NCBI GenBank assembly: GCA_026418195.1
Contig: JAOABU010000116.1
Location: 2,977 to 66,976, forward strand
Direction: 5' to 3'
DNA length: 64,000 bases
DNA from: Spirochaetota bacterium
Lineage (GTDB): Bacteria; Spirochaetota; Spirochaetia; DTKZ01
Shown: piece by piece, positions 29,788 to 36,067 of the stretch
Numbering within the stretch: the first letter of the stretch is position 1
Layout: each line of letters opens with the position of its first letter
Translations under genes and position numbers: made by a program
The notes under the pieces: model-generated
What the model was told of the DNA's origin: nothing
Seen by the model: only the letters and a program-made list of their open reading frames with translations
Databases searched by the model: none

Positions 29788-29831
29788 GGAATTGACAGGA
29801 GATAGGAAAATGGATAGTGTATGGGAAGTGT

Positions 29832-29905
29832 GGGCGACTAGCTCAGTTGGATAGAGTACAAGCCTCCGGAGCTTGGGGTCGTGGGTTCGAATCCCGCGTC
29901 GCCCA
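29832..29905 (+). tRNA. tRNA-Arg (anticodon CCG)
   Basis: Manual fold: acceptor GGGCGAC/GTCGCCC; D-arm GCTC-AGTTGGATA-GAGT; anticodon stem CAAGC/GCTTG with loop CTCCGGA (anticodon CCG); T-arm GTGGG-TTCGAAT-CCCGC; discriminator A. No encoded CCA. Confidence 0.85.
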
Positions 29906-29908
29906 TCC

Positions 29909-30265
29909 TTATTCCAAGGAAAGGTACCTTACAACCTTTTGAACCCTCCGCTCAATCAAATAGTACAGGGCTTGAGGGTATTCCTTCTTTTTGATCAGTT
30001 CCTTGAACTTAGCGAGCACCCCTGCTGAAAGCGCCTCGAGGGATTCATACTCTTCCGTGGAGAAGGTATCTAGGAACTTGAAAAGCGATCGGAGGGCTGC
30101 TATTTCAGCCTGGATGAGGCTAGAGTTTTCCTGTAACACATAGTTGGTTATTTCATGTTTCTGTTCATAACAGCGATAGATTTCGAGGAGCGTATTTAGG
30201 TCTTCCTGTATTTCTTCCAACTCCATCTTGAGGATCGAAAGAAACTTATGGGCTTTTGTTTTCAT
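29909..30265 (-). CDS. hypothetical small helical protein
   Basis: 118-aa ORF with amphipathic-helix / coiled-coil composition. No recognisable motif. Coding status uncertain. Confidence 0.35.
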   Translation of the reverse strand: MKTKAHKFLSILKMELEEIQEDLNTLLEIYRCYEQKHEITNYVLQENSSLIQAEIAALRSLFKFLDTFSTEEYESLEALSAGVLAKFKELIKKKEYPQALYYLIERRVQKVVRYLSLE

Positions 30266-30350
30266 GGGGACCTCCTTCTACACCCCTCATGGTGAATCCA
30301 TTTCTTTTTAATTGTACGCTCAGATAATCCGTTTTACAACGTTTTTCTGT

Positions 30351-30379
30351 TTGCATTTTTCAAATAAGTGAAGTATATT
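30351..30379 (+). promoter_or_regulatory. strong sigma70-like promoter driving the short leader/sRNA unit
   Basis: TTGCAT (30351..30356), a 17-nt spacer, then TATATT (30374..30379). Confidence 0.45.
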
Positions 30380-30385
30380 TTTAAA

Positions 30386-30575
30386 AGGGAAGGAGGTCTG
30401 AATGACTACTCCACCGAAGGGGAAAGGCCGGTGAGGAGCCGGCATTCGGAAGACATAGACTGGTATATTGCAGCGTGCCTTTTTAGGCACAGATTAGATG
30501 TGTGTGAGGTCACGAAGAGTAAGACACCTCTTCGGACTTCTAAAAGCCGGAAGTGAGTTCCGGCTTTTTCTTTTT
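30386..30575 (+). ncRNA. candidate ~190-nt leader RNA / sRNA containing a 10-codon ORF (MTTPPKGKGR) and ending in an intrinsic terminator
   Basis: RBS AGGAGG (30391..30396), ATG 30402, stop TGA 30432..30434 inside hairpin GCCGG-TGAGGAG-CCGGC. Further hairpins: GTGCC-TTTTTA-GGCAC (30475..30490), and GAGGT...ACCTC (30506..30530) competing with GAAGAG...CTCTTC (30514..30533). Terminator: AGCCGGAA-GTGAG-TTCCGGCT + TTTTTCTTTTT (30544..30575). Confidence 0.3.
30544..30575 (+). terminator. rho-independent terminator
   Basis: 8-bp GC-rich stem AGCCGGAA/TTCCGGCT, 5-nt loop, followed by an 11-nt T-tract. Confidence 0.6.
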
Positions 30576-30595
30576 AAGAACAACGGTTGCGAGTT

Positions 30596-30611
30596 GATAC
30601 AGTACTGTATC
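30596..30611. promoter_or_regulatory. perfect 16-bp palindrome GATACAGTACTGTATC upstream of parE
   Basis: Exact inverted repeat (GATACAGT|ACTGTATC) 77 nt upstream of the parE ATG, between the terminator and a TTGCAT hexamer at 30628. Confidence 0.35.
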
Positions 30612-30687
30612 CCTGGTGTTCGATCTTTGCATTCCGCAAAAAAAGTGGTAAGGTTGAGTATCGAAGCATACGTTTGGGAGGGGAACG

Positions 30688-32490
30688 ATGCCGATACAAG
30701 AAGCTCCTGTATACGATGAAAGTAAAATCATTACTCTTAGTTCCTTAGAACATATCCGTCTCCGCACGGGGATGTATATTGGCCGGTTAGGAGATGGAAG
30801 CAGCTTCGATGATGGAATCTATATCCTTCTGAAGGAAGTAATCGACAACAGTGTAGATGAGTTCATCATGGGGTACGGCACGAGGATTGAGGTGACTCAG
30901 GAGGGCACTCGGATTCGGGTTCGGGATTATGGACGAGGGATTCCTCTCGGAAAGTTGTTAGAGTGTGTGTCGGTTATCAATACCGGGGCTAAGTACAACG
31001 ATGATGTGTTTCAGTTCAGCGTGGGGTTGAACGGTGTAGGTACGAAGGCGGTCAACGCCCTTTCTGTGTTCTTCCGGGTGGTATCCTACCGGGATGGGCA
31101 ATGGGCTGAAGTTCGTTTTTCTAAAGGTAAACTCCTGCACCAGGAATCGGGAAAACGTTCAAAAGAGAAGAATGGGACCTTAGTTGAGTTCGAACCCGAT
31201 CCCGAGCTATTTGGCGAGTATGTATTCAACCAGGAATTTATAGAAAAGCGACTATGGACATATGCCTATCTGAACAAGGGCTTAACTCTCACGTACAATG
31301 GAAAGGAGTTCCATTCGGAGCGGGGGCTAGAGGATCTCCTAGCTTCTGAGATCGGGAATAATAGGCTGTACGATCCTATCTATGGTTCCGGGAGCTCGCT
31401 GGAGTTTGCCTTTACCCATACGGAGAACTATGGGGAAACGTACTTTTCCTTTGTCAATGGACAACACACTGTAGATGGGGGAACTCATCTTTCTGCTTTT
31501 CGGGAAGGTGTGTTGAAAGGGATTTGCGAATACTTTCAAAAGAGCTTCAATGGATCGGATGTACGAGAAGGGTTTGTAGGGGCTATTGCCATCAAGCTTA
31601 AGAATCCTATTTTCGAAAGCCAAACAAAGAACAAGTTGGGGAATACAGAGATTAGGCCCTGGATCGTAGGGGAGGTGAAGTCTGCTATCGTGGACGCCCT
31701 TCATAGGAACAAGAAGCTGGCAAAAGTGTTGGAGGGGAAGATTCTTCAGAATGAAGCCCTACGGAAAGAACTCACCCTCGTTCAAAAAGAGGCAAAGGAG
31801 GCGGCGAAAAAAATAGCTCTCAAGATCCCCAACCTGAAGGACTGTAAGTATCACAGGGGGGAGGACGGGGAGGAAGGTGAAAAATCCATGATCTTTCTCA
31901 CCGAGGGGCAATCTGCATCTGGTTCGATGGTTTCTGCTCGAGACGTGTACCATCAGGCGATCTTTTCCCTACGGGGCAAACCTCAGAACATGTACGGTCG
32001 CAGGCGGACGGCGATCTATCAGAATGAAGAACTCTATAACCTGATGACCGCATTAGGAATCGAACATTCAGTGGAAGATCTTCGGTATGGAAAGGTGATT
32101 CTAGCTACCGATGCAGACCACGATGGGTACCATATCCGAAACCTGCTCCTCACCTTTTTCTTGAACTATTTCGAGGAATTGGTTCTTGCAGGGAGGTTGT
32201 TCATCCTGGAGACACCGCTGTTTCGAGTACGGAACAAACAGGAAACCCGGTACTGTTATTCTATTCGGGAACGAGACCAGGCGATGAAGGAACTTTCAGG
32301 GTGCGAGGTGACCCGATTCAAAGGATTAGGAGAAATCTCTCCCAAGGAGTTTGGTCAATTCATTGGCCCCAACATGCGATTGGTGGAGGTGAACGTAAAA
32401 TCCGTGAAAACCATCCCTGATACACTGGAGTTCTACATGGGGAAGAACACCCCCGAACGAAGGGATTTCATCATGGAGAACCTGATCTAG
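30688..32490 (+). CDS. parE: DNA topoisomerase IV subunit B (type IIA topoisomerase ATPase subunit, short ParE-type)
   Basis: 600 aa. GHKL ATPase, transducer and TOPRIM domains (EGQSASGS, LATDADHDGYHI). The length and pairing with a short A subunit fit ParE rather than GyrB. Confidence 0.8.
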   Translation: MPIQEAPVYDESKIITLSSLEHIRLRTGMYIGRLGDGSSFDDGIYILLKEVIDNSVDEFIMGYGTRIEVTQEGTRIRVRDYGRGIPLGKLLECVSVINTGAKYNDDVFQFSVGLNGVGTKAVNALSVFFRVVSYRDGQWAEVRFSKGKLLHQESGKRSKEKNGTLVEFEPDPELFGEYVFNQEFIEKRLWTYAYLNKGLTLTYNGKEFHSERGLEDLLASEIGNNRLYDPIYGSGSSLEFAFTHTENYGETYFSFVNGQHTVDGGTHLSAFREGVLKGICEYFQKSFNGSDVREGFVGAIAIKLKNPIFESQTKNKLGNTEIRPWIVGEVKSAIVDALHRNKKLAKVLEGKILQNEALRKELTLVQKEAKEAAKKIALKIPNLKDCKYHRGEDGEEGEKSMIFLTEGQSASGSMVSARDVYHQAIFSLRGKPQNMYGRRRTAIYQNEELYNLMTALGIEHSVEDLRYGKVILATDADHDGYHIRNLLLTFFLNYFEELVLAGRLFILETPLFRVRNKQETRYCYSIRERDQAMKELSGCEVTRFKGLGEISPKEFGQFIGPNMRLVEVNVKSVKTIPDTLEFYMGKNTPERRDFIMENLI

Positions 32491-32491
32491 T

Positions 32492-34447
32492 ATGACCTAT
32501 ATCACCAACCTCTACCAAACGAACTTCCTCGAGTATGCATCCTATGTAATCAAGGATCGAGCCATCCCCCATCTAGATGATGGGTTAAAACCGGTTCAAC
32601 GTCGAATCCTTCATTCCTTATTTGAAATGGATGATGGAAAGTTCCACAAAGTGGCCAATGTAGTAGGCCACTGCATGAAATACCATCCCCATGGGGATGC
32701 ATCCATCTATGAAGCCTTGGTGAATCTGGCCAATAAGGAACTCTTCATCGAAAAGCAGGGGAACTTTGGGAATATCTTTACCGGAGATGCTCCTTCGGCT
32801 GCCCGGTATATCGAATGCCGGGTTTTGCCTTTAGCAAAAGAGATCCTCTACAACCCGGAACTGACCCAGTACGAAGATAGTTATGATGGTCGAAACAAGG
32901 AACCCGTTACCTTTCCTGCGAAGATACCCTTGGTCCTTTTACTAGGCGCAGAGGGGATTGCCGTGGGAATGTCCACCCGGATCCTCCCGCACAATCCCGT
33001 TGAGGTGATGGAAGCGATGAAAGCCCGCTTAAAGGGGAAGAAGGCAACGGTGTACCCCGATTTTCCCACCGGTGGGATCCTGGATGTCACGGATTACCAG
33101 GATGGAAATGGAAAAGTTCGAGTCCGGGCAAAACTTGATACCAGCGATCCTAAACGGATCGTAATTCGGGAACTTCCCTATGGCTGTACTACCGAGAGCA
33201 TGATAGCTTCCATCGAAGCAGCTGCTCGGAAAGGGGTATTGAAGATTGCAAGTATCAACGATTTTACCACCGAAGAGGTAGAGATCGAGATTAAACTTGC
33301 TCGAGGTACCTATTCCAAGGATGTTGTGGACTCTCTTTTTGCGTTTACTGACTGCGAGGTCTCCATTCCTGTGAATCTCTTGGTGATCAAGGATAAGACC
33401 CCTGTACAGATGACAGTAGGTGAGGTGATCGATTATCACACTAAACGTCTTACGGAAATCCTCAAACAGGAACTCCTCCTGGAACAGAACACCTTACTGG
33501 ATCGACTCCATATTCGTACCCTGGAACAGATCTTTGTGGAGGAACGGATTTATAAAAAAATCGAGGAGAAACGAACAGCGGAAACAGTGGTAAAAGCGGT
33601 AATCGATGGATTCAAACCTTTTTCTACCCAGCTTCTTCGTCCTGTTACCGAAGAAGACGTGGAAAAACTTCTAAAAATTCCCATTCGGAGGATCTCTCTT
33701 TACGATATTCAGAAGAATAAAAAAGAGATGGAGGAGATCAAGGGAAGGTTGAAGGAGATTAAGCATCACCTCGCTCATCTAGTGGATTATGCGGTGGCCT
33801 TCTTGGATGGAATCATTGAGAAATATGGGAAACGCTTCCCTCGTCGGACGATGATCAAGAGCTTCAAGAAGGTGGATGCCCGAGAAGTGGCCGTCAAGAA
33901 CCTGAAACTCCGTTACGATGAGGAATCAGGGTATCTAGGGTATGGAATTACCACTGGAACTGTTCTGTTTGAAGTTTCGCCCTTCGATCGGATCCTTATT
34001 GTGCGGGGTTCGGGGGTTTTCTCTGTACAGAATGTACCTGAAAAGCTATTCGTGGACAAACATCTCCTCTACTGTGGGGAAGCAGACAAGGAGCGATTGT
34101 CCCAAAAAGTATTTTCTGTTTTATATCGGATGAAGGATTCCGGTCAGGCATATCTCAAACGCTTTCGTATCGGAGGATATATTCTTGACAAAGCATACGA
34201 AGCAGTACCTCCGGAAGGGGAAGCCTTACATCTAACAACCAAGGAAGATGCCTATATCTACGTGAAGTATGAAAAAACAGCAAGATCCAAGGTTGAAGAA
34301 GAAACTTTCCCCCTAAAAAAGTTCCCTGTCAAGAACGTACGTTCTGCAGGGAGAAGACTTTCTTCTAGAGCCATTATCACAGCCCGGTTTGTAAAAGGGG
34401 TAGCGAAGGGAAAGGAGAAACTAAAAGAATTAGAGGAAAAAACATAA
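32492..34447 (+). CDS. parC: DNA topoisomerase IV subunit A (short ParC-type)
   Basis: 651 aa. Type IIA subunit-A N-terminus (IKDRAIPHLDDGLKPVQRRIL, active-site Tyr region AARYIECRV) with a truncated C-terminal domain. It starts 1 nt after parE. Confidence 0.8.
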   Translation: MTYITNLYQTNFLEYASYVIKDRAIPHLDDGLKPVQRRILHSLFEMDDGKFHKVANVVGHCMKYHPHGDASIYEALVNLANKELFIEKQGNFGNIFTGDAPSAARYIECRVLPLAKEILYNPELTQYEDSYDGRNKEPVTFPAKIPLVLLLGAEGIAVGMSTRILPHNPVEVMEAMKARLKGKKATVYPDFPTGGILDVTDYQDGNGKVRVRAKLDTSDPKRIVIRELPYGCTTESMIASIEAAARKGVLKIASINDFTTEEVEIEIKLARGTYSKDVVDSLFAFTDCEVSIPVNLLVIKDKTPVQMTVGEVIDYHTKRLTEILKQELLLEQNTLLDRLHIRTLEQIFVEERIYKKIEEKRTAETVVKAVIDGFKPFSTQLLRPVTEEDVEKLLKIPIRRISLYDIQKNKKEMEEIKGRLKEIKHHLAHLVDYAVAFLDGIIEKYGKRFPRRTMIKSFKKVDAREVAVKNLKLRYDEESGYLGYGITTGTVLFEVSPFDRILIVRGSGVFSVQNVPEKLFVDKHLLYCGEADKERLSQKVFSVLYRMKDSGQAYLKRFRIGGYILDKAYEAVPPEGEALHLTTKEDAYIYVKYEKTARSKVEEETFPLKKFPVKNVRSAGRRLSSRAIITARFVKGVAKGKEKLKELEEKT

Positions 34448-34479: not shown

Positions 34480-34507
34480 TTGACAAAGCGGATAATACCT
34501 ATATAAT
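34480..34507 (+). promoter_or_regulatory. near-consensus sigma70 promoter for rny
   Basis: TTGACA (34480..34485), a 16-nt spacer, then TATAAT (34502..34507). RBS GGGAGG lies before the ATG at 34538. Confidence 0.5.
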
Positions 34508-34537: not shown

Positions 34538-36067
34538 ATGCCATACTGGTTACTGGTTCTCCTTCCTCTTACTGGTTTTGTTTTAGGTTGGATTGTTAGA
34601 TGGTTGTATGCCAGATTTCAACTTTCATCTTTGGAGCAAAAAGCTGAAAGAATCAAGCAGGATGCGATTAAAGAAGCAGAAGCTAAGAAAAAAGAGCTTA
34701 TCCTTGAAACGAGGGATCAGCTTCTTCGTGAAAGAACACAGCAGGAACGGGAAATTCGAGAGCGGAGGAATGAACTTCAACGGTTCGAACGCAGACTGCT
34801 TCAGCGAGAGGAGACCTTAGAGCGAAAGTTGGCTCAGGTAGACAAACAAGCCCAAACCTTACTAGCCCGTGAGAGGACATTAGCGGAGAAGGAAGAGTAT
34901 TTAGTACAGCAGGAAGAGCGATGGATCAAAGAACTGGAACGGGTTTCCGGTTTGAGTTCAGAAGACGCGAAACGTCTTATTATTTCGACCTTAGAGAATG
35001 AAGCCCGGCACGATGCACAGGTCATCCTGAACAAGATCGAACAGGAGATGAACCTAGCTGCGGAGAAAAAAGCACGGGAGATCCTCATCGCTACCATGCA
35101 ACGAATCGCTACGGATGTGACTTCTGAGGTTACGGTCACTACGGTGAGCCTTCCCAACGATGAAATGAAGGGACGAATCATCGGACGGGAGGGGAGAAAC
35201 ATTCGAACCTTAGAAACCCTCACGGGGGTAGACATCATCATCGATGATACCCCCGAAGCGGTAGTCATATCCTGTTTCGATCCAATTCGAAAAGAAATTG
35301 CTCGTCGAACATTGGAGAAACTCATTTCCGACGGACGGATCCACCCTGCGCGGATCGAAGAGATGGTTCAAAAAACGACCAAGGAAATAAACCAGATCAT
35401 TTACGAGGAAGGGGAGAAAGTGCTCTTTGAATTAGGGATCCATAACTTCCCTCCCGAAGGAATCCGTGCTCTGGGAAGGTTACATTTCCGAACCAGTTAC
35501 GGACAGAATGTACTGGCCCACTCTAAAGAAGTAGCCATTCTGGCTGGGATGCTGGCAGGCGAGTTGGGTGCGGATCGGGAGATTGCCAAACGAGGGGCTC
35601 TATTACACGATATTGGCAAAGGGGTGGAGAGTGAGGGGGATTCTACCCATGTGGAGTTGGGAATTGAACTAGCGAAGAAACTAGGAGAAGATCCTCGGGT
35701 GATCAACGCCATTGCTGCCCACCATGGAGATTCTGAGTTTAACTGCCTGGAAGCTGTAATTGTACAAATTGCCGATTCCATTTCTGCGGCTAGACCCGGC
35801 GCACGGCGGGAAACCCTCGATACCTATATCAAGCGATTAGAGAATTTGGAAAAGATTGCCAATGATTTCGAGGGAGTGGAGAAAGCGTACGCGATTCAAG
35901 CGGGCCGAGAGTTGAGAATCCTGGTAAATACGGACCGCGTTTCGGAAGAACAGACAAAGGAAACGGCCAAACAGATTGCCAAAAAGATCGAAGCCGATTT
36001 GCGGTATCCCGGCAGGATTAAAGTAACGGTGATACGGGAAACCCGAGTGGTGGAGTATGCCCGATAA
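34538..36067 (+). CDS. rny: ribonuclease Y
   Basis: 509 aa. N-terminal TM helix, coiled-coil, KH domain ([22 protein letters not shown]) and HD domain ([17 protein letters not shown]...LLHDIGK). Confidence 0.9.

Follow-up and report, generated by a model that had tools for sequence, protein, structure and literature searches.

A conserved, clade-restricted small RNA and micro-ORF gene predicted upstream of parE-parC in an uncultured spirochaete clade

The 64,000-nucleotide (nt) stretch of DNA analysed here, which belongs to a Spirochaetota bacterium (contig JAOABU010000116.1) and is referred to below as the window, carries directly upstream of the parE-parC operon a compact unit made up of a promoter, a 10-codon open reading frame (ORF), several hairpins and an intrinsic terminator. 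On comparative sequence grounds, we conclude that this element is a real, conserved, lineage-specific small RNA/micro-ORF gene that is absent from Rfam. The first-pass annotation of the window had wavered between a ribosome-mediated transcription attenuator of the operon and a separate gene for a small RNA or a micro-peptide. Our analyses favour the latter, given that the element has its own promoter, an invariant terminator, compensatory changes in two of its hairpins (P3 and P4) and an intact ORF in 14 of 14 homologues, and that parE has a separate conserved promoter-like block. With a probability of about one half, we consider it a stand-alone small gene whose terminated RNA of ~190 nt would contain a 10-codon ORF whose translation is throttled by the hairpin P1, with P3, P4 and the terminator hairpin (T) acting as a scaffold. 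We infer from these comparisons where transcription starts and ends, that the ORF is translated and that the product acts in trans.

To our knowledge, small RNAs and micro-ORFs have been experimentally characterised in few spirochaetes besides Borrelia. Thermophilic or environmental spirochaete lineages are known mostly through metagenome-assembled genomes (MAGs), and such genes are unannotated there. The element described here is a clean candidate backed by comparison, with its near-invariant 60-nt module set against saturated neutral sites and its nine compensatory pairs, and might become the founding member of a new RNA family and a test case for the translation of 10-codon ORFs. If translated, the ORF would count among the shortest coding sequences conserved in bacteria; the practical impact is modest, as the gene belongs to one narrow uncultured clade.

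The homologue set comprises 14 distinct RNA sequences from about four lineages of this single Spirochaetia clade, represented by metagenomes and MAGs. With a covariance model built from the homologues (R1), they score 184-228 bits, and the model matches the window at 30386-30577 with 221 bits. A metagenome scan with a wobble-tolerant pattern of the ribosome-binding site plus ORF yielded 10 true and 2 obvious chance matches, and contigs carrying homologues of a neighbouring 118-amino-acid (aa) protein, which were gathered independently of the ORF pattern, supplied 10 further loci, all with the RNA (184-223 bits). Five of the 14 sequences (the L100, L102 and L105-L108 group) were reached via the neighbouring protein and not via the ORF pattern. 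The 88%-identical relative L084 carries a homologue as well, and locus L001, at one point a candidate for lacking the RNA, turned out to be a long-spacer variant like L105-L107, with its contig ending inside the spacer. Every sufficiently long locus displays the same gene order, namely an NTP-transferase gene, the 118-aa gene on the minus strand, the RNA on the plus strand, and parE-parC-rny. No homologue was detected by blastn, nhmmer or the covariance model in the 80 best GTDB parE loci (ParE at most 72% identical) or in four closer outgroup loci (L002/L003, L085, L098 and L099; ParE 75-80% identical), and with these 84 outside parE loci devoid of it, the RNA was rejected as a general parE leader. 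Together, the gene order and the searches indicate that the RNA is single-copy, clade-restricted and syntenic. Neither a repeat of it within the window nor another genomic context among the metagenome matches was found, and a search of viral contigs did not return its 5′ motif. With neither a repeat in the window nor a viral-contig match, derivation from a phage or mobile element was dismissed. The first-pass annotation had suggested looking for the micro-ORF and the hairpins upstream of parE in related genomes, where both are indeed kept in the 14 homologues.

The same annotation had considered that a known housekeeping RNA might turn up in Rfam, and no such family emerged. Among the 4227 covariance models of Rfam 15, which include 6S, SRP, tmRNA, riboswitches, the gyrA motif and the TD-1/TD-2 spirochaete motifs, the search of the 64-kb window at gathering thresholds returned a tRNA-Arg alone. 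At E-values of up to 10, the best match was AaHKsRNA41, which reached 22.5 bits against a threshold of 97, lay on the opposite strand and owed its score to the terminator hairpin alone. Likewise, we found no leader or small RNA at a spirochaete parE in the literature.

Selection on the element is apparent when the homologues are compared with the window (all identities given here are of this kind). At the protein level ParE is 89-97% identical, and the four-fold degenerate sites of parE, at 32-53% identity, are near saturation. Within the RNA, the first 60 nt are 82-98% and the terminator 90-97% identical, with the middle part at 53-91% and the promoter region at 53-78%. Because the 5′ 60 nt and the terminator are conserved despite the saturated parE sites, we conclude that the RNA is under strong purifying selection at the nucleotide level.

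This conservation is accompanied by a well-defined secondary structure. The 192-nt RNA folds with -75.3 kcal/mol, compared with -54.1 ± 4.0 kcal/mol for shuffled sequences (z = -5.3), and none of 200 shuffles was as stable. RNAalifold predicted five hairpins (P1, P2, P3, P4 and T), for which 99.2% of the structure cells in the 14-sequence alignment are paired. Compensatory double changes occur in nine pairs, four of the six in P3 and five of the 13 in P4, a level reached by 0 of 500 shuffles, while controls with slid partners gave 0-4; no covariation was seen in P1, P2 or T. P3 (30475-30490) consists of six pairs (GUGCCU-UUUU-AGGCAC), and P4 (30506-30540; 97.8% of cells paired) combines an outer helix, GAGGUC/GACUUC, with an inner one, CGAAGAG/CUCUUCG, below a variable loop, for a total of 13 pairs. 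These correspond to the two further hairpins that the first-pass annotation had described. Of the alternative pairings it had proposed, GAGGT/ACCTC does exist in the window and is not conserved, several homologues having AAACTC or GAACCA instead; GAGGUC pairs with GACUUC in the outer P4 helix, as backed by a compensatory change from U-A to C-G. The ORF linker CCGAAGGGG (30414-30422) is complementary over 9 base pairs (bp) to the 3′ strand of P4, CCUCUUCGG (30526-30534), and this alternative appears in the minimum-energy nascent-RNA fold of L094 and L105-L107. The pairing is not conserved, since it is reduced to 4-5 bp in L087, L093 and L100.

The boundaries of the putative transcript are set by a promoter and a terminator on the plus strand, the strand of all parts of the element. 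The small-RNA promoter (30351-30379) is composed of a -35 box, TTGCAT (30351-30356), a 17-nt spacer and a -10 box, TATATT (30374-30379). Both hexamers are thus as reported in the first-pass annotation, which had called the promoter near-consensus; at 9 of 12 matches (registered in our scan as TTTGCA-18-TATATT) it is better described as decent. All homologues keep the TTGC core of the -35 and a -10 of the form TATA(A/T/C)T, with differing spacer sequences. From this promoter, the predicted transcript of ~190 nt would extend over 30386-30575, its start being placed at ~30386. It would end at the intrinsic terminator (30542-30575), in which a stem formed by AAAAGCCGGAA and UUCCGGCUUUU around a GUGAG loop (30542-30568; -15.4 kcal/mol) precedes a U-rich tail, TTTTTCTTTTT, ending at 30575. 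The textbook terminator announced by the first-pass annotation is therefore present, with a stem of 11 pairs when A-U pairs are counted, and in a scan of the 22-42 kb region it is the strongest terminator-like site and the sole strong canonical one. A promoter and terminator of its own thus appear to enclose a short transcript with no long ORF and a covariation-supported structure, as expected for an independent small RNA. A longer protein gene was rejected: a 62-aa ORF does span the RNA, but L087 and L093 lack it and L100 has a truncated version.

The 5′ part of the RNA bears the signs of translation. A Shine–Dalgarno sequence, AAGGAGG (30390-30396), has its GGAGG 5 nt ahead of the ATG of the micro-ORF (30402-30434), which reads ATG ACT ACT CCA CCG AAG GGG AAA GGC CGG TGA and encodes MTTPPKGKGR; the strong ribosome-binding site and the 10-codon ORF seen in the first-pass annotation are both borne out. 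In all 14 homologues the Shine–Dalgarno sequence, the 5-nt spacing, the AUG, the frame, the length of 10 codons and the UGA are invariant. Variation within the 5′ module falls in the two 5′-terminal bases, the spacer between the Shine–Dalgarno sequence and the AUG (the loop of P1) and the P2 loop after the stop. Inside the ORF, synonymous third-position variation affects codons 4 (A/G), 6 (G/A) and 7 (G/A/C), and only two lineages show amino acid changes, K8F (AAA to UUC) in one and G9R (first base of codon 9) in the other. P1 (30393-30412) pairs GGAGGUC with GAC and then, past a UA bulge, with CUCC; all seven of its pairs are invariant, and the helix closes on the G of the AUG and sequesters the Shine–Dalgarno sequence, with a stability of about -6 kcal/mol at 37 °C and -2.6 kcal/mol at 55 °C. 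P2 (30427-30443) comprises six pairs, GCCGGU-GAGGA-GCCGGC, one of which shifts from U-G to U-A, and has a stability of -10.1 kcal/mol. The UGA stop sits atop its 5′ arm, the U forming the last pair and the GA lying in the loop, in agreement with the earlier placement of the stop codon in a GC hairpin. The unpaired linker varies with a three-base period and the stems are invariant without covarying, a combination expected of a translated ORF laid over structure; the probable product of the micro-ORF is the basic peptide MTTPPKGKGR. The conserved signals and the synonymous bias are those of a small protein-coding gene, in a comparison of low power within a single clade. The ribosome-binding site of the 118-aa gene, GAAGGAGGTCCCCATG (minus strand, 30263-30278), has the same sequence and spacing as that of the micro-ORF and, written as GAAGGAGGTC-N4-ATG, is equal to it.

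In the reading that we favour, a sigma-70-type promoter of its own would start the ~190-nt transcript near 30386, and the strong intrinsic terminator would end it at ~30575, ahead of the separate promoter of parE-parC. The 60-nt 5′ module, comprising the Shine–Dalgarno sequence, the AUG, the 10 codons and the UGA, is predicted to fold as P1 and P2; by pairing the Shine–Dalgarno sequence with codons 1-4, P1 would throttle initiation on the micro-ORF, and P3, P4 and the terminator most likely represent a stabilising scaffold. Such a 5′ module with its micro-ORF points to a tiny mRNA or a dual-function small RNA acting in trans, and not to a cis attenuator. The dual-function small RNAs SgrS/SgrT, RNAIII/hld, SR1/SR1P and AzuCR are similarly independent RNAs of 100-500 nt that combine an intrinsic terminator and a conserved structure with an internal short ORF led by a Shine–Dalgarno sequence, features that are predicted in the present case. 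Their ORFs, however, have 26-43 or more codons as compared to 10 here, and there is no sequence or Rfam relationship.

Several observations weigh against this reading. The transcript start, the transcript end and translation are all predicted. Selection on the peptide is statistically weak, with ~5-6 synonymous versus 2 non-synonymous events, and between the window and L093 only one of six comparable four-fold sites of the ORF differs, when ~4 would be expected from parE; part of the ORF invariance is explained by the RNA pairing that constrains it. The sequestration of the Shine–Dalgarno sequence in P1 argues against efficient translation, and a peptide of 10 residues has no export signal and no obvious function. 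In addition, a stand-alone gene does not explain why the terminator stem should have the identical sequence in 14 of 14 homologues when P3 and P4 covary. The terminator also resembles P2, both having the form GCCGG...UGAG...CCGGC, and the end of the ORF, AAA GGC CGG UGA, parallels the terminator's AAA AGC CGG AAG UGA; this resemblance could reflect duplication, twin protein-binding sites or exchange pairing. Finally, because the element occurs in a single clade with full synteny, its position cannot separate a functional linkage to parE from simple inheritance.

The alternative that survives best, although we regard it as somewhat unlikely, is a non-translated regulatory RNA that acts by base pairing or protein binding, in which the look-alike of a Shine–Dalgarno sequence and AUG and the ORF would be incidental to a 5′ domain serving as a seed or protein site (e.g. 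the twin hairpins P2 and T). A conserved 5′ region followed by variable middle hairpins and a U-tailed terminator is the classical layout of a trans-acting small RNA, and the element follows it. Conservation of the 5′ 60 nt goes beyond coding need, the third positions of ACU ACU, CCG and CGG being fixed despite the saturated four-fold sites of parE, and both the sequestered Shine–Dalgarno sequence and the invariant, P2-like terminator would fit an RNA of this kind. Nevertheless, variation in the unpaired linker is not even and mostly affects codon third positions, and the 5-nt spacing between the Shine–Dalgarno sequence and the AUG, the AUG itself, the frame and the stop are kept in 14 of 14 sequences. 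Similarly, the absence of covariation in P1 and P2, as opposed to the freely covarying P3 and P4, fits stems whose nucleotides double as ribosome-binding site and codons. Nothing interpretable in support of a base-pairing RNA came from RNAduplex predictions against the 75 translation-initiation regions of the window, which gave long-loop duplexes that we consider artefacts. As for protein binding, a CsrA-type sponge was considered and set aside as weak: by eye on the alignment, GGA is frequent in the window's RNA, but the GGA of the P2 loop and the next GGA are lost in L087 and L093.

Attenuation, the other proposal of the first-pass annotation, is unlikely. According to this explanation, the RNA would be a cis leader of parE-parC, an attenuator or arrest-peptide sensor in which stalling at Pro-Pro or Arg-UGA (in response to EF-P, RF2, proline or a drug) decides the fate of the terminator, read-through adding topoisomerase IV; regulated read-through would link translation status to that enzyme. 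The order of the parts is classical, with a short leader ORF and its own ribosome-binding site before a same-strand terminator in 14 of 14 homologues, and the element stands directly upstream of parE in every genome bearing it. The conservation of the peptide sequence, as in arrest peptides, would fit too. What the element lacks is a conserved antiterminator. Folds of nascent transcripts, ribosome-masked folds and forced-pairing folds across the homologues uncovered none that is conserved or competitive. In the nascent-transcript folds, the partners of the terminator's 5′ arm vary by lineage and are absent in L087 and L093; the pairing of CUGGU(UUU) with (AAA)AGCCGG, which would suit a leader, attains 5-9 bp in some lineages, is limited to 4-5 bp in the window and L088, and is again missing from L087 and L093. 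With a ribosome mask extending to 15 nt past the P-site at Pro4, P2 and the 11-bp terminator still form, the terminator doing so in every homologue. The sole invariant alternative is an exchange pairing of the P2 3′ arm (CCGGC) with the terminator 5′ arm (GCCGG), whose five G-C pairs are possible throughout because P2 and the terminator share their GCCGG/CCGGC arms, and one would expect sequence shared between two helices to stay invariant, which these arms do. Forcing this pairing, however, costs 2-9 kcal/mol, and the minimum-energy structure of each homologue contains the terminator even when ribosome-masked. Moreover, the ORF stop is separated from the terminator by ~107 nt and two stable autonomous hairpins.

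The region between the terminator and parE likewise speaks against a leader. A hypervariable spacer (30576-30626) follows the terminator and ranges from roughly 25 to >150 nt among the homologues, with large indels. The inserts differ in kind, being GC-rich and ~70 nt long in L105-L107 and L001 (positions 1-70 of L001, whose contig ends within the insert), and AT-rich and ~100 nt long in L087. Beyond the spacer lies a promoter-like element (30627-30654, plus strand) consisting of TTGCAT, a 16-nt spacer and an extended -10, TGgTAAGGT, which would function as the parE promoter. All lineages keep this TTGCAT-16-TGnTAAGGT block ~35 nt ahead of the parE ATG; among the closest lineages, the N (G, C or T) is the sole variable base of TGnTAAGGT, and the two most divergent ones retain TGnTA..GT or TGnTAC..T. 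Although below the hexamer threshold of our scan, the block argues for an independent parE promoter downstream of the terminator. Its -35 region (TTTGCAT) is identical to that of the small-RNA promoter. A unit of this type is also missing from the relatives with 75-80% identical ParE and from the 80 other parE loci; a terminator-like site upstream of parE was noted at six of 81 loci, and the two that we examined belong to an upstream gap gene. On the combined results regarding the antiterminator, the modelled folds, the stop-to-terminator distance, the spacer, the promoter-like block of parE and parE elsewhere in spirochaetes, the attenuator claim is not supported.

A comparison with known leader-peptide attenuators (trpL, hisL and pheL, bmrB-bmrCD, and the mef/mel leader) leads to the same point. 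They share with our element a promoter, a Shine–Dalgarno sequence, a tiny ORF, hairpins, a terminator and a same-strand operon. Unlike them, the element has no conserved antiterminator overlapping the terminator, no run of regulatory codons tied to the function of the operon, a long distance from stop to terminator occupied by autonomous hairpins, and an operon with its own conserved promoter-like block. The small RNA rnTrpL of Sinorhizobium meliloti derives from an attenuator, and its leader peptide of 14 aa, peTrpL, has an additional activity in trans (PMC7298713). The predicted element is similar in being a short RNA of leader type that ends at a terminator and encodes a tiny peptide; in such a system, RNA and peptide can both function away from the operon. 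Whereas rnTrpL is a true attenuator of trp and contains regulatory Trp codons, attenuator logic could not be demonstrated for the present RNA, and the two are not homologous.

We find it quite improbable that the invariant peptide of this free-standing RNA is an arrest or sensor peptide, such that stalling at Pro-Pro or Arg-UGA remodels P2 and T and read-through into parE-parC follows the state of translation (as set by EF-P, RF2 or a small molecule), or that the peptide is a new trans-acting micro-protein. The former would represent a new coupling of translation capacity to chromosome decatenation, and the latter would place the gene among the shortest chromosomal genes in bacteria. The arrest-peptide sensors TnaC, SecM, ErmCL/ErmBL, SpeFL and MgtL resemble the element in having a short ORF conserved at the amino acid level, and the Pro-Pro and the UGA stop inside a hairpin are in keeping with them. 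In those systems, however, the stalled ribosome exposes a downstream ribosome-binding site or blocks Rho beside the regulated gene, whereas here the nearest gene start is ~250 nt away, past a strong terminator and a second, putative promoter. Structured RNAs upstream of type II topoisomerase genes have a precedent in the gyrA RNA motif of Rfam, a structured RNA candidate upstream of gyrA in Pseudomonas; it differs from the present RNA in that no Rfam match to it arose at E-values of up to 10.

A functionless relic or passenger, i.e. the remnant of a gene start or a mobile or islet sequence that arrived with the 118-aa gene beside a tRNA-Arg gene, is very improbable and largely refuted by conservation. 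In its favour, the RNA and the 118-aa orphan are confined to the same clade and adjoin a tRNA gene, and the nearest outgroups do not share the synteny upstream of parE. Against it, the 5′ 60 nt and the terminator are under strong purifying selection at neutral-site saturation, compensatory changes maintain pairing in P3 and P4, and each locus has one copy, neither a repeat in the window, nor another context among the metagenome matches, nor a viral-contig match having been found.

Returning to the stand-alone gene and its surroundings, the divergent 118-aa orphan gene occupies 29909-30265 on the minus strand, with a promoter-like site at 30339-30311 on that strand, and its stop codon is abutted by the tRNA-Arg(CCG) gene (29831-29908, plus strand). 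The 118-aa gene is found beside the RNA at each homologous locus that reaches far enough upstream. Its product is 100% identical to N2442_11185 from a MAG labelled 'Spirochaetes bacterium', falls into just 8 protein clusters, all within the RNA-bearing clade, and matched no family in Pfam or NCBIfam searches. AlphaFold predicts a confident four-helix bundle (predicted local distance difference test, pLDDT, 89), for which a fold search of the PDB returned no informative match and hence no functional clue for the RNA. In the nearest outgroups, synteny upstream of parE is interrupted at tRNA-Arg, and because of this break the 118-aa gene and the RNA may form a small islet beside that tRNA gene.

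Downstream and outside the RNA lies the parE-parC operon (30688-34447). ParE, encoded at 30688-32490 on the plus strand, has the GyrB/ParE domain set, and its homologues are named topoisomerase IV subunit B in the sources; parC (32492-34447, plus strand) matches the NCBIfam equivalog NF007209 with 962 bits (cut-off 644). With 600 aa, ParE stays under all NCBIfam GyrB/ParE cut-offs (best 407 bits versus 740), and ParC (651 aa) is of the short PRK09631 type. The types of ParE and ParC, together with the nearest named proteins, assign the window to uncultured Spirochaetia. This short ParE/ParC pair is also present in loci labelled Fibrobacterota, Latescibacterota and Gemmatimonadota, at 66-72% identity. 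The rny gene (34538-36067) follows parC, and the gap between them contains a promoter that matches the consensus at 12 of 12 positions (TTGACA-16-TATAAT, 34480-34507), which suggests that RNase Y is probably transcribed apart from parE-parC. In the window (1-64000), the GC skew is negative or near zero over the first ~12 kb, whereas between ~24 and 60 kb it is clearly positive.

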